A DNA stretch of 14,640 nt, taken from the IMG/VR virus record IMGVR_UViG_2630968342_000015; one strand, 5' to 3'. This stretch comes from a virus. Lineage: Duplodnaviria > Heunggongvirae > Uroviricota > Caudoviricetes. A program made the position numbers and the translations under genes. Under the pieces are notes generated by a model. That model was not told the DNA's origin, did not search any database, and worked only from the letters and a program-made list of their open reading frames with translations. Of the stretch, positions 6,910 through 14,475 are shown piece by piece (position 1 is the stretch's first letter; every line of letters starts with the position of its first letter).

Positions 6910-7062
6910 ACCCGAACTGAATCATGAGTATTCTCGCCCGTGGTGCCAGGACGCTGGGGCCACTTTCCCGCCTGTTAATGTGCTCGCCAATATTCATTAC
7001 CAGGCGGGAAAACGATCGGTGCGATTGCTGATTTCCTTATGAAAAACGGTTGAGTTTTTGCC

Positions 7063-7102
7063 GCGTCCTGGAGTTCCTTACTTAACCCCAGGACTTTTTT
7101 TT
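7063..7102 (+). terminator. Terminator/attenuator hairpin abutting the capsid start codon, with the SD inside its 3' arm
   Basis: GTCCTGG (7065-7071) pairs with CCAGGAC (7088-7094) across a 16-nt loop, followed by eight T (7095-7102), then ATG at 7103. AGGA (7090-7093) is the only SD-like sequence. Confidence 0.4.
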
Positions 7103-8260
7103 ATGCCGAGAATAATCGAATTACGCCAGCAGAAAACCGCCATTAAAAATCAGATGCGCGACATGCTGGAGAACGCGGAAAAAGAAAACCGCAGCCTTAA
7201 CGATGCAGAGGGCGCAAAATTTGACGAATTACGCGCTAAAGCTGAATCCCTCGATAAAGACATTTCCCGCCTTGAAGCCATTGCAGACGAAGAGCGCAGC
7301 AAGCCAGGTAAAAGCAGCCAGACCACTGACCCGGCAGAACTCCGCAACTACATCCTGACAGGTGAAACCCGCGCATTAAGTACAGGCGTTCCCGCTGATG
7401 GTGGTTATACCGTTATCCCCGAACTGAACACCGAAATCATGCGAATGCTGACGGATGAATCCACCATGCGCCGCATCTGTACCGTGAAGAAAATCAGCAG
7501 CAACGAGTTTAAGCAGCTTGTTTCCGCTGGCGGTGCGACCGTTAACCACGGTGAAGAGGGTAAGACACGCGAACAGACCAGCACCCCGCAGATTAACGAG
7601 GTGAGCATTAAGCTGTATCCGGTCTATGCGTACCCGCGCACCACACAGGAAATCGTGGATTTTTCCGATGTGGACATCCTTTCATGGCTGACGGGTGAGA
7701 TTGGCGACACCTTCACGGAAACCGAAGAAAGCGATCTGGTTGTGGGCGACGGTGACAAAAAAGCAAAAGGTTTTTTATCCGTACCCCGTGCAGAGAAGAA
7801 CGACAAAGAGCGTGATTTTGGTACGTTGCAGGTAATTAAACCTTCCGAATCTCTGGCGTGGACATCTGCGGACCCGCTGATCGACCTGAAATTTGCATTA
7901 CGTAAAAAATACCGCAAAAACGCGGTCTGGGTGGTTAACTCCACGACGGCGGCAAAACTTCAGAAGGTGAAGAACGCGAACGGTGATTACATCTGGCGCG
8001 ACCGTTTACAGGCGGGTGATCCTGATACGTTGCTGGGCCTTCCGGTCGAATATCTGGAGTTTATGCCTGATAACGTTATTGCCCTGGGTGACTTCAAACG
8101 CGGTTACTACATTGTTGATCACGAAACAGGTGTTCGCACCAGACCGGACAACCTCACAGAGCCGGGCTTCATCAAAATTTTCACGCAGAAATATTTAGGC
8201 GGTGGCGTGGTGGATTCGAACGCGATCAAGATTCTGGAACTGCCACAGGACGACGATTAA
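7103..8260 (+). CDS. Major capsid protein, HK97 fold, with N-terminal scaffold-like delta domain
   Basis: 385 aa. Charged, coiled-coil-like N-terminal ~100 aa followed by a body recognised by eye as HK97-family. ATG 7103 preferred over the TTG at 7058 shown in the ORF track. Confidence 0.9.
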   Translation: MPRIIELRQQKTAIKNQMRDMLENAEKENRSLNDAEGAKFDELRAKAESLDKDISRLEAIADEERSKPGKSSQTTDPAELRNYILTGETRALSTGVPADGGYTVIPELNTEIMRMLTDESTMRRICTVKKISSNEFKQLVSAGGATVNHGEEGKTREQTSTPQINEVSIKLYPVYAYPRTTQEIVDFSDVDILSWLTGEIGDTFTETEESDLVVGDGDKKAKGFLSVPRAEKNDKERDFGTLQVIKPSESLAWTSADPLIDLKFALRKKYRKNAVWVVNSTTAAKLQKVKNANGDYIWRDRLQAGDPDTLLGLPVEYLEFMPDNVIALGDFKRGYYIVDHETGVRTRPDNLTEPGFIKIFTQKYLGGGVVDSNAIKILELPQDDD

Positions 8261-10420: not shown

Positions 10421-10713
10421 CAGAAGAACTTATCACCCTGGAAGAAGTGAAACTCCATTGCCGCATCGATGGCGACGAGGAAGACCAGTTAATCAGCGGA
10501 TACATCGCCGCATCGCTTGAGGCGTGCCAGATACACATAGGCAGGCGCTTTGATGACGGGCTGGAGTTCACGCCAGCCATAAAGATTGGCTGCATGATGT
10601 TTATCGCTCACCTGTATGAAAATCGCCAGATTGTCGCGGATAACGCAAAAACACGCGTACCCATGACGATTGGTGCACTCTGGACGGCTTACCGTGATGT
10701 GGGGGTGTACTGA
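10417..10713 (+). CDS. Head-tail connector protein (gp6-like)
   Basis: 98 aa. N-terminus LITLEEVKLHCRIDGDEEDQLISGYIAAS and AHLYENRQ are typical of gp6-like connectors. ATGA overlaps on both sides. Confidence 0.7.
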   Translation: MTEELITLEEVKLHCRIDGDEEDQLISGYIAASLEACQIHIGRRFDDGLEFTPAIKIGCMMFIAHLYENRQIVADNAKTRVPMTIGALWTAYRDVGVY

Positions 10714-11153
10714 TGCCGTGGCAACCATTAAGACGATGCACAGAACCAGGCTGTAACAGGCGCGTGAAGTCCGGCAAGTGTGAGGAGCACAGGCGGGCGG
10801 CATGGCGTGCAGAGGATGCCAGACGAGGACACCGCCGCGCGCGTGGGTACTCCAGACAGTGGGACAAATACCGCGCCATGTATCTGAGTAAAAACCCGTT
10901 ATGCGTGCGATGCCTTGAGAAGGGGATATATACGCCCGCCGTGGTGGTGGATCACATTATCCCGATTAATGGCGGTGATGATGTTCTCTTCTGGCCCGAA
11001 TGGAACCATCAGCCATTGTGCCAGGCGTGCCATAACCAGAAAACGAAATGGCTTGATCCGGCAACAAAAAGCAAGCGTGCCGCAGGTGGATTTCGTGAAG
11101 AGGAAGAACGGGCCGCTAACCGCAATAACTGGATGTATGACGCTGATGAATGA
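10713..11153 (+). CDS. HNH endonuclease (terminase-associated)
   Basis: 146 aa. Cys pairs CNRRVKSGKC and CVRC, then HNH core DHIIPI ... NHQPLCQACHNQKT. Confidence 0.85.
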   Translation: MPWQPLRRCTEPGCNRRVKSGKCEEHRRAAWRAEDARRGHRRARGYSRQWDKYRAMYLSKNPLCVRCLEKGIYTPAVVVDHIIPINGGDDVLFWPEWNHQPLCQACHNQKTKWLDPATKSKRAAGGFREEEERAANRNNWMYDADE

Positions 11154-11319
11154 GCGGGAACAAAACCGCCTTATCCGTGGACTTATAAGGCAGCGTGACG
11201 CATGGAAGACACAGGAAACAGGGCATAAAGATAAAGCGTCAGGACGCGCAGAACGCATCACAGCGAAGCGATTAACCGACCGTGACCGCGAGGTTATGGA
11301 ATGTTTCCGCAATCGCTGA
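11146..11319 (+). CDS. Hypothetical small charged protein (57 aa); uncertain
   Basis: ATG at 11146 overlapping the HNH stop by 8 nt. Only the 3' portion of ORF-track entry 10915..11319 is not in conflict with HNH. Confidence 0.3.
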   Translation: MNEREQNRLIRGLIRQRDAWKTQETGHKDKASGRAERITAKRLTDRDREVMECFRNR

Positions 11320-11441
11320 TGAGGCTGTATGACGGGGTGGGGGGCGTTTTCAGGACAAACCCGACCCCGCCGGGCACCGACCGCCTCCTCAAATTTTTAT
11401 GCACGGGAATTTTTTGAAAAATAATCTGACGAAAAATAAGC
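11320..11441. other. Candidate cos / packaging-initiation region between HNH and terS
   Basis: G-run GGGGTGGGGGGCG followed by C-rich CCCGACCCCGCCGGGCACCGACCGCC, then an AT-rich stretch. Placement between HNH and terS matches HK97-type cos phages. Exact cut site not identifiable by eye. Confidence 0.3.
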
Positions 11442-11798
11442 ATGGCAAGACCACCGAAAGCCCCCGCCTACCTGGATGACATCGCCGTGAAGCAGTGGCG
11501 GGAAAAATCGCGGCAGCTTGCGGAACGGGGAGACCTGACCCCCGCCGACTGGAGCAATCTGGAACTGTATTGTGTCAACTACTCCATTTACCGGAAAGCC
11601 GTCGCAGACCTTGCGGCGCGCGGGTTCAGCATTGTTAACAGTCAGGGCGGCGAGAGCAGAAACCCCGCATTAAGCGCGAAATCAGACGCTGAAAGGGTGA
11701 TGATAAAAATGGCCTCCTTGCTCGGTTTTGACCCGATAAGCCGCCGTAAAAACCCACCGGAAACAGAAGAAGAGGACGAGCTTGACCGCCTGGAATAA
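11442..11798 (+). CDS. terS: Terminase small subunit (P27-family type)
   Basis: 118 aa, immediately upstream of and overlapping terL; acidic C-terminus EEEDELDRLE. Family recognised by eye. Confidence 0.8.
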   Translation: MARPPKAPAYLDDIAVKQWREKSRQLAERGDLTPADWSNLELYCVNYSIYRKAVADLAARGFSIVNSQGGESRNPALSAKSDAERVMIKMASLLGFDPISRRKNPPETEEEDELDRLE

Positions 11799-13443
11799 GT
11801 ACGCAGAAGACGTAAAAACGGGCAAAATTCAGGCCTGTAAACGGTTAAAACAGGCCGTTAAACGGTACTTTTCGGACCTTAAAAGCCCCCTTTACACGTT
11901 CGATCGTGAGGTTGTGGATCGGTTTATTGCCTTTTCCAGGGTGTGCCCGCACGTAAAAGGGCCGATGCGTGGCAGACCCATTGAGCTGGAGCCGTGGCAG
12001 CAGTTCGCCTTTGCGTGCATCCTCGGCTTTAAGGTTAAGGCCACCGGACGGCGCAAATATACGAGCGCCTTTATCGAAGTGCCGCGCAAAAATGCTAAAT
12101 CAACGACCGCCGCGATTCTGGCTAACTGGTTTCTGATTATGGAGAACGGTCAGCAGGATATTTACACCGCAGCGGTGAGCCGTGACCAGGCGAGGATCGT
12201 ATTTGATGATGCGCGTCAGATGTGCATTTTATCCCGACCGTTACGCAGGCGGGTGAATATTCAGGCGCATAAGGTGATACACCCGAAAACCAACAGCCTG
12301 TTAAAGCCGCTGGCAGCAAAAGCGGCAACTATCGAGGGCACAAACCCCAGTCTTTCTATCGTGGACGAATACCACCTACACCCCGACAACGGCGTATATT
12401 CTGCGCTTGAACTGGGGATGGGGGCACGTCCCGAAGGGCTGTTATTTGCCATTACCACATCGGGAAGTAACGTCGTTTCAGCCTGTAAGCAGCATTATGA
12501 TTATTGCTGCCAGATCCTGGACGGCGAAGAGGTTAACGAATCGCTTTTTGTGCTGATTTACGAACTGGACGACGAAAACGAGGTTGATGATCCGGAGATG
12601 TGGATAAAGGCGAACCCTAATATCGATGTTTCCGTGGATCGTGAAAAACTGGCCTCAACCATTCAGAAAGCGCGGGGTATTCCGTCGCAATGGGTGGAGA
12701 TGATGACAAAGCGATTTAATATCTGGTGTCAGGGGACTACCCCGTGGATGGGTAATGGTGCATGGGCTGAGTGTGCCGGAACGTTCACGGAGGAAGATTT
12801 ACACGGTCAGGAGTGTTACGCGGGGCTGGACTTATCATCAACCAGCGATATTTCCAGCGTGTGCTATGCCTTTCCGGTCGGTAAAACCATTATGATGATT
12901 TCCCGTCATTATCTGCCGGAGTTCCAGCTACAGAACCCCGCCAATAAAAACCGCGCTGTCTATCGTCAGTGGGCTAAAGCAGGCTGGATACGCACAACGC
13001 CTGGCGACTGCATTGATTACGACCGGATCAGAGATGACATCATGCAGGACGCGGAGAAATTTAATATCAGGCTGGTGGGCTTTGATACGTGGAACGCCAC
13101 GCATCTCAGAACGCAATTACAGGGGGCAGGTTTTGAGGTGGAGCCGTTCCCGCAAACCTACCTCAGATTCAGTCCGGCGGCGAAATCGTTCGAAGTTTTT
13201 GTTAACCGCAGGGTGATTGTGCATCGTGGCGATCCGGTGTTGTCCTGGTCGATGAGTAACGTCGTGATGCAGAGTGACGCGAACGCCAATATCAAGCCGA
13301 ACAAGAAAAAATCACCGAACAAGATAGACCCGAGCGTGGCGGCGCTGATGGCGTTTGGTACATTCCAGGCAGAGCATGAGGATTTTGCTTTTGATATAAG
13401 CGACAGCCACCGCCAGAAACTGGAAGAATTTAGCGGGGTGTAA
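11782..13443 (+). CDS. terL: Terminase large subunit
   Basis: 553 aa. N-terminus MTAWNKYAEDVKTGKIQACKRL is typical of TerL. Apparent TTG start at 11782 with SD GAGGA (11772-11776), overlapping terS by 17 nt. Confidence 0.9.
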   Translation: MTAWNKYAEDVKTGKIQACKRLKQAVKRYFSDLKSPLYTFDREVVDRFIAFSRVCPHVKGPMRGRPIELEPWQQFAFACILGFKVKATGRRKYTSAFIEVPRKNAKSTTAAILANWFLIMENGQQDIYTAAVSRDQARIVFDDARQMCILSRPLRRRVNIQAHKVIHPKTNSLLKPLAAKAATIEGTNPSLSIVDEYHLHPDNGVYSALELGMGARPEGLLFAITTSGSNVVSACKQHYDYCCQILDGEEVNESLFVLIYELDDENEVDDPEMWIKANPNIDVSVDREKLASTIQKARGIPSQWVEMMTKRFNIWCQGTTPWMGNGAWAECAGTFTEEDLHGQECYAGLDLSSTSDISSVCYAFPVGKTIMMISRHYLPEFQLQNPANKNRAVYRQWAKAGWIRTTPGDCIDYDRIRDDIMQDAEKFNIRLVGFDTWNATHLRTQLQGAGFEVEPFPQTYLRFSPAAKSFEVFVNRRVIVHRGDPVLSWSMSNVVMQSDANANIKPNKKKSPNKIDPSVAALMAFGTFQAEHEDFAFDISDSHRQKLEEFSGV

Positions 13444-13456
13444 TGAGGTCAGCAGC

Positions 13457-13738
13457 ATGACAGAAGCCGAAATAACGGGATTAATCCGCCGCGTTGCCGG
13501 AATCAGCCAGCAGGCTGACGAACAGGCCACGCAGCCGGACAGCGTGACAGCCGAAAACTATGCGCGTGTTGTTGCTGAGGTGATGCGCCGTGATGGTATA
13601 GAACTTAATGGCGTGGATATGCGCAACATACGAACCAGAGTTCTTGAGTTGCTGGCCTACCGTCGCCGCGTGGAGATGTATCGGGAGAAGGAGAAAATAA
13701 CGTACCACTGGAAGAAGCCGGAGCGGTTGCGGCGGTAA
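13457..13738 (+). CDS. Hypothetical protein (93 aa), last gene of the element
   Basis: ATG 13457 with SD GAGG. No recognisable family. Confidence 0.5.
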   Translation: MTEAEITGLIRRVAGISQQADEQATQPDSVTAENYARVVAEVMRRDGIELNGVDMRNIRTRVLELLAYRRRVEMYREKEKITYHWKKPERLRR

Positions 13739-14030
13739 CTGGTTGATATTCCCGACGGACCAAAAATGGGTGGCTACATCCCTCGCTTCTGAGGACTGTT
13801 AACAAGCTGCCTGAAAGACAGTCACAAACTACGAAATTTTCGCAGTTTAATTAATGATCAGCTTAATCGCTAACCCGCTGATATTTTCGGAAACCTCAAT
13901 TTGAGGAAGTCGGCGCGGTAACTCGCTGAACTTTAAGCAAAGTGCAAAATTGCGCTTGCTGAATAATCATTATGATTACGCAGATGATTAAGGAATGACC
14001 GAAGGCGGAAATTCGCCTGTGGTTAATGGG

Positions 14031-14457: not shown

Positions 14458-14475
14458 GAAAATTATTTAATTAAA

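Follow-up and report, generated by a model that had tools for sequence, protein, structure and literature searches.

Genes and composition of the locus

The locus lies within a window of 14,640 nt (the whole stretch of DNA that was analyzed), between a gene for an HNH endonuclease and terS. The HNH protein (10713..11153, + strand; Pfam HNH, E = 1.8e-8; phrog_144, E = 8e-45) is a gp74-like packaging accessory nuclease, 39% identical to HK97 gp74 (E = 2e-19) and 37% identical to the HNH protein of SfV. terS (11442..11798, + strand) encodes a small terminase of the P27 family (Pfam Terminase_4, E = 1.3e-23; phrog_83) and is followed by terL (11782..13443, + strand), encoding a large terminase of the HK97 type with matches to Pfam TerL_ATPase and TerL_nuclease and 27% identity to HK97 gp2 over its full length (E = 3e-47). 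TerL and the HNH protein are thus homologous to HK97 gp2 and gp74, as for an HNH-dependent cos. TerS is homologous to that of SfV (36% identity, E = 4e-21, both in phrog_83) and presents no detectable similarity to HK97 gp1 (E = 2.4), so that the likeness to HK97 on which the first-pass annotation had relied does not extend to TerS.

The region in question is located between the HNH gene and terS-terL, with one small conserved ORF of 57 aa (11146..11319, + strand) intervening. The ATG of this ORF overlaps the HNH stop codon, and the ORF takes up the left 60% of the interval 11154-11441 that had been flagged as an inter-gene site. As it is annotated in RefSeq (hypothetical protein WP_000174068) and matches phrog_3173 (E = 6e-37), 11154-11319 should be considered coding, and the true non-coding gap is 11320-11441. 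No Pfam family matched the 57-aa product, which is basic and in which the C-terminal RDRE..ECFRNR* is kept across many genera; it could be a packaging accessory protein and is a candidate for this role. In the Acinetobacter phage AbIPP1, a small ORF that looks unrelated occupies the equivalent slot.

The G-run, C-rich tract and AT-rich segment described by the first-pass annotation were located correctly, as seen on recount. Positions 11334-11346 (GGGGTGGGGGGCG) contain G in 11 of 13 nt and form the top G-rich 13-mer of the window, 11361-11387 are 59% C and are among its most C-rich 27-mers, and A+T reaches 74.5% across 11391-11441. By itself, however, the composition of the G-run and C-tract is weak evidence for a site, as a 13-mer containing 11 or more G or C was present in 73 of 300 shuffles of the window. 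It is conservation, not composition, that sets the region above chance.

Identity of the element

Judged by its gene content and order, the window is not an HK97-type phage but an Escherichia coli capsid-forming PICI (cf-PICI) of the EcCIEDL933 type, namely a phage satellite, without tail or lysis genes. Pfam matches identify an integrase (1-1218), AlpA (1593-1781), a D5-type primase (3406-5238), SSB (5768-6178), an HK97-fold capsid protein (7058-8260), a prohead protease, a portal, a head completion protein and a connector. The order in the window is int, alpA, primase, capsid, protease, portal, connectors, HNH, terS, terL, which combines the int, AlpA and primase/replication module of cf-PICIs with the capsid, protease, portal and connector genes followed by hnh-terS-terL, as found in Proteobacteria. 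The element measures ~14.6 kb between two tqsA halves, within the 10-18 kb range of cf-PICIs, and neither a tail module nor lysis genes were found in the RefSeq annotation of a 100% identical locus. Because gene content and order match those of published proteobacterial cf-PICIs, the site belongs to a satellite and not to a phage.

The HNH-terS segment (10713-11800) is 100% identical to that of E. coli G1/2 and is matched by O157:H7 strains at ~98% DNA identity; the element is carried by 515 of 5426 complete E. coli genomes. In E. coli G1/2, it lies inside tqsA, the AI-2 transporter gene, flanked by two annotated pseudogene fragments (1195-2100 and 16785-16928 of locus L001). EcCIEDL933 and KpCIDSM30104, both from the Penades laboratory, have the same gene content and order as the window, and the KpCIDSM30104-type Klebsiella element also has the same cos architecture. 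The cf-PICI texts that could be searched mention cohesive ends but contained no sequence-level map or description of cos for either element.

Conservation of the non-coding gap

To compare the gap among relatives, a TerS-based scan with one genome per species was used, yielding 33 loci from Klebsiella, Aeromonas, Citrobacter, Serratia, Xenorhabdus, Erwinia, Pectobacterium and other genera. For 30 of the 33 loci, distinct and from different genera, the upstream DNA was aligned with that of the window, and conservation was defined as the share of sequences that have the most frequent base. The G-run (GGGGTGGGGG, 11334-11346) scored 0.86 and the adjoining block TTTTCAGGACAAA (TTTCAGGACAAA, 11347-11359) scored 0.80. 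They are followed by a variable spacer of 13 nt (11360-11372) with a conservation of 0.53, by the C box (11373-11390) at 0.87, by AAATTTTTAYGCACGG (11391-11407) at 0.91, and by the T-run and GAAAATAA (11408-11421) at 0.89. For comparison, codon positions 1, 2 and 3 of terS scored 0.92, 0.94 and 0.65, respectively. Outside the 13-nt spacer, conservation in the gap is thus 0.80-0.91, near that of the first and second codon positions.

The conserved blocks persist where the upstream gene is unrelated. As they outscore the third positions of terS even in such surroundings, the non-coding gap is under strong purifying selection. The same blocks are also found in the Pasteurella satellites Pmp7 and Pmp8, which were deposited as phages in records of 10.7 and 15.3 kb, respectively, and which encode an HNH protein and a TerS 66% identical to that of the window, with the same cos architecture. 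Their size and content suggest that both are Pasteurellaceae satellites of this same kind. A blastn search among the phage records of the collection searched revealed none that share the sequence, the few real matches being satellite-sized or fragmentary, and this absence agrees with reports that satellite and helper packaging exclude each other.

Comparison with known cos sites

The closest measured reference is phage SfI, for which run-off sequencing of virion DNA revealed a 10-nt gap corresponding to the cohesive end TGCCCGCCCC (PMC3636060; the text searched gives no polarity for this end). The cos region of SfI differs from that of SfV by one base. In SfV, the box TGCCCGCCCC is found 31 nt after GGGGAGGGGCGGG and before ATCGTTTTTTTATACCCGCG. 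When 11325-11441 of the window was locally aligned with the SfV cos junction, the similarity was well above chance (z = 8.8, reached by 0 of 1000 shuffles), with a collinear alignment that runs from the G-run to the T-run and places the SfV box TGCCCGCCCC on 11378-11387. The likeness amounts to ~85 nt of collinear DNA at ~60% identity. In both SfV/SfI and the window, the site lies between HNH and terS and consists of a G-run, a spacer of ~31 nt and a C-rich 10-nt box followed by a T-run. The window differs in its box, which is CGACCGCCTC, in the small ORF between HNH and cos, and in its host element, a satellite that lacks tail and lysis genes.

HK97 is a more distant reference. Its record ends with ...GGGCAGGGGGGGGGATCAAATCTTCAAAACCTTTGCCCCAAATGACCGCCGCCAAA and starts with GTTTGAATTTAACGCTAACCCGATTTTTTTAG, and the numbering in the paper on HK97 TerS binding agrees with the start of this record. 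HK97 DNA has 10-nt 3' overhangs. Cleavage of its cos is stimulated by gp74 (HNH), and TerS binds at +15 to +29; the need for TerS, TerL and HNH together in cleavage was shown for HK97 only. Direct alignment of the window with HK97 cos was not significant (z = 1.8), and transferring HK97 cos in this manner was thus rejected. SfV, which aligns with HK97 cos at z = 6.2, was instead taken as a bridge, such that similarity of the window to a measured cos junction is obtained via SfV and not via HK97. The terminase and HNH comparisons rank the two phages in the same way. In terms of layout, HK97 nonetheless presents the same order of HNH, cos and terS, a G-run that precedes the C-rich terminal 10-mer by ~32 nt and, downstream, a T-rich stretch, then a G/C core and then an A/T tract, as does the window. 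The two differ in that the HK97 TerS is unrelated in sequence and the terminal 10-mer appears to be offset by ~3 nt.

The lambda cos (cosQ-cosN-cosB) resembles the site in general logic, with a cut site flanked by a region for TerS binding downstream and by a further element upstream. Lambda, however, has unrelated terminase subunits, a 12-nt 5' overhang and an IHF site, whereas the class to which the site belongs requires an HNH partner and the site would have a 10-nt overhang, probably 3', with no IHF consensus in the gap. Indeed, a search of 11320-11441 for the IHF consensus WATCAANNNNTTR with up to one mismatch returned no match, and a lambda-type cosB is thus not seen in the gap. In the entire window, there are only two perfect matches to WATCAANNNNTTR, at 13736-13748 (- strand) and 14474-14486 (+ strand), both near the right end and downstream of terL, where the attachment site would be expected.

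Ends of packaged-type DNA in relatives

Contigs that start or end at cos offer a second route to the cut site. A metagenome contig of 15,518 bp, IMGVR_UViG_3300022664_000095, is free of terminal repeats and contains a complete gene set in cos-permuted order, namely terS, terL, int, alpA, capsid, protease, portal, connectors, HNH and the small ORF. Scanning IMG/VR for the G-run and then for the start of terS revealed this contig, whose start was missed by a TerS-based search. The contig starts with CTCAAATTTTTACGCACGG (CTCAAATTTTT) and ends with ...GCAAGGCAC (...GGCAC), while its closest integrated relatives read GGCAC|CACCCGCCCC|CTCAAATTT. Because the contig ends flank CACCCGCCCC of the integrated relatives, the contig appears to lack exactly 10 nt, which correspond by homology to the cohesive end of SfI, as judged from these relatives rather than from a prophage copy of its own. 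The loss also bears on polarity. A 3' overhang at the box is probable, since the 10 nt are gone from both ends of the contig, as happens when end repair acts on a 3' overhang. A 5' overhang is disfavored, since fill-in would leave the segment at both ends.

The second such sequence is GenBank LR881103 (vB_KppS-Ant, 16.5 kb), which has the gene content of a satellite in an order running from terS to HNH and the small ORF. The phage preparation from which it derives was grown on K. pneumoniae DSM 30104, Nextera XT was used for sequencing, and the authors noted >99% identity of the record to the host genome. Compared with the corresponding locus of ATCC 13883 (= DSM 30104), vB_KppS-Ant is 100% identical on both sides of the junction and lacks 69 nt, located after TTTTCAGGAC and before ACGAAAAGG and including the box. 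As tagmentation loses the ends of linear molecules, this gap brackets the physical ends, which should lie in the interval equivalent to 11357-11421, but does not by itself give their exact position. He et al. described concatemers of KpCIDSM30104 that form via cohesive cos ends, and given the same host strain, we infer that vB_KppS-Ant and KpCIDSM30104 are the same element. The source paper described vB_KppS-Ant as a filamentous ssDNA phage of a novel genus, while the gene content seen here is that of a cf-PICI. The record also contains a CDS of 765 aa after terL that is annotated as a tape measure protein.

Other records were less informative. The UViG L266, from an E. coli isolate, is 97.6% identical to the window overall and identical in its last 60 nt, and ends at the equivalent of 11378. 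This end may be an assembly or provirus-trimming boundary and is given little weight, as the other end of the record coincides with the start of int. No E. coli-type contig starting at cos was found in IMG/VR (33 matches) or in the JGI/ENA metagenomes (8 matches). In a scan of IMG/VR contig ends for the downstream motif, all matches were internal or at storage-chunk boundaries; most of this motif is missing from any contig ending at cos, and flanking patterns were used instead. The AbIPP1 record was rotated to the terS start and thus informs on architecture only, not on ends.

Predicted cos map and alternative explanations

The gap at 11320-11441 is very probably the cos site of the E. coli cf-PICI. 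The proposal of the first-pass annotation that a cohesive-end site lies between HNH and terS is supported by the conservation of the gap, by its homology to SfV and by the ends of packaged-type DNA in relatives. The finding of virion ends elsewhere had been named as the observation that would speak against such a site; in the relatives, the ends of both 3300022664_000095 and vB_KppS-Ant fall in the gap.

The predicted cosN is the 10-nt cohesive end CGACCGCCTC at 11378..11387, where the SfV box aligns, where the contig ends point and which lies inside the vB_KppS-Ant gap. The two independent anchors, i.e., the SfI measurement and 3300022664_000095, yield the same 10 positions. Transferred by homology from relatives in which TerS is 83% identical, the right duplex end would be 11377 and the packaged left end would start from 11388, with CTCAAATTTTTATGC. 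What had been considered a single C-rich tract (11361-11387) is thus retained only at its 3' end, 11378-11387, as the predicted cohesive end, with the 5' part being variable spacer. The downstream block CTCAAATTTTTATGCACGGGAATTTTTTGAAAAATAA (11388..11421, + strand; conservation 0.89-0.91) is a putative cosB and the likely TerS-binding site, and the T-run of the window is found at +23 to +28 from the predicted left end. It should be noted that, as the TerS families differ, the analogy with the TerS site of HK97 is one of layout.

Packaging could then proceed as follows. After excision and replication, TerS of the satellite itself, a P27-family protein, would bind ~11388-11421 and position the HK97-type TerL, which, together with HNH, would nick twice, 10 nt apart, around CGACCGCCTC. 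The products would be 10-nt cohesive ends, most likely 3' overhangs. Packaging would run rightward from 11388 through terS, terL, the attP junction, int, the replication genes, the capsid genes, HNH and the small ORF to the next cos. The G-run at 11334-11346, 31 nt upstream, would be a further part of the site, possibly serving in cutting or termination. In this scheme, we infer the exact position of the cut here, the 3' polarity, the pairing of proteins with blocks and the role of the G-run.

The main residual uncertainty lies in the exact nick positions in the E. coli lineage and in the polarity of the overhang. The nicks could be shifted by a few bases in this lineage, or the overhang could have another length or be 5', with cos still being in the gap. 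Several points are in line with such a shift: In the alignment of HK97 with SfV, the terminal 10 nt of HK97 are displaced rightward from the SfV box by ~3 nt, L266 ends at 11378 and not at 11377, and the box, although always C-rich, has 11 variants in 31 loci, with the CGACCGCCTC of the window being unique among them. Polarity, moreover, is deduced only from the loss of 10 nt at both contig ends. Nonetheless, the distances between the box and its flanks do not vary, with 10 nt in nearly all loci, and the SfI measurement and the metagenome contig agree on position. As for the overhang, that of HK97 is 10 nt and 3', and the SfI cohesive end is also 10 nt. We thus consider a departure from the map in nick position, overhang length or polarity unlikely.

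It could also be argued that the gap serves mainly in the control of terS-terL transcription or translation, as a promoter, terminator or leader RNA, with the packaging site being elsewhere. The gap is directly upstream of terS, its A/T-rich tail must hold the terS ribosome-binding site, and the G-run and C box can form 9 pairs that are kept in nearly all relatives. However, compensatory change was seen in 0 of these 9 pairs, folding was no better than that of shuffles (z = +0.39), no Rfam family matched at E <= 1, and neither a sigma-70-like promoter nor an intrinsic terminator was found on the + strand. With the ends of two packaged-type sequences also falling in the gap, a role confined mainly to such control is very improbable. 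A hairpin or terminator formed by the G-run and the nearby C-rich DNA, which can pair in the window, was considered separately and rejected, given the same fold score and given that, in relatives, the pairing partner falls in the variable spacer. Headful packaging from a pac site, without fixed ends, is the generic alternative for any TerS/TerL module and has nothing specific in its favor here. The combination of HNH with an HK97-type TerL is, in contrast, a known cos type, concatemers via cohesive ends were reported for a cf-PICI, and the ends of 3300022664_000095 are unique with no terminal redundancy, so that we give headful packaging almost no credence.

The G-run element

Relative to the cos site as mapped above, the G-run (11334..11346, conservation 0.86) is an upstream cos element that repeats the cohesive-end box imperfectly and in inverted orientation. 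Its distance upstream of the 10-nt box is 30-32 nt in 26 of 29 relatives and 31 nt in the window. Together with the box, the G-run makes up an imperfect inverted repeat of 9 pairs, which is invariant in nearly all relatives and shows no covariation, and because the pairs are invariant, no structure is demonstrated by them. Similar G-runs occur upstream of the SfV, HK97, Pmp7 and AbIPP1 junctions. AbIPP1, which shares the TerS family of the window, has the same G-run and box arrangement. In SfV, the G-run matches part of the box in inverted form (GGGGCGGG versus CCCGCCCC).

In the texts searched, no role for the G-run was found. We tentatively suggest, as a possibility that is at present rather doubtful, that it is a second, undescribed subsite common to HNH-dependent cos sites and recognized by TerL or HNH rather than by TerS. 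G-runs lie ~27-32 nt upstream of the box in SfV, HK97 and the Acinetobacter phage despite differing TerS families, and a spacing that is common across TerS families would indicate recognition by TerL or HNH. If this is true, the G-run might place the second nick or trigger termination, like cosQ of lambda.

Meaning of the site

As interpreted here, the site is an HNH-dependent cos with a 10-nt cohesive end, like those of SfV and HK97, and the satellite family in which it occurs is a known one; as such, it is expected and not surprising to a specialist. cf-PICIs make capsids of their own, in which they package nothing but themselves, and identical elements are found in different genera. This packaging exclusivity is based on the sequence recognized by the terminase, and a base-level map of cos offers a target for mutagenesis and for the design of cos-carrying plasmids that could be packaged by cf-PICI capsids. 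Such a map also allows packaged ends to be recognized in virome data and decayed elements to be flagged.

One example of the latter is the copy in Shigella flexneri SFBU1023, in which 97 bp between two direct repeats of CCCCGCC have been deleted (window-equivalent 11372-11468; locus L004 2490-2510). Along with the cohesive-end box, the deletion eliminates the downstream block and the first terS codons, and this copy is probably a satellite in decay that has lost the capacity to be packaged.
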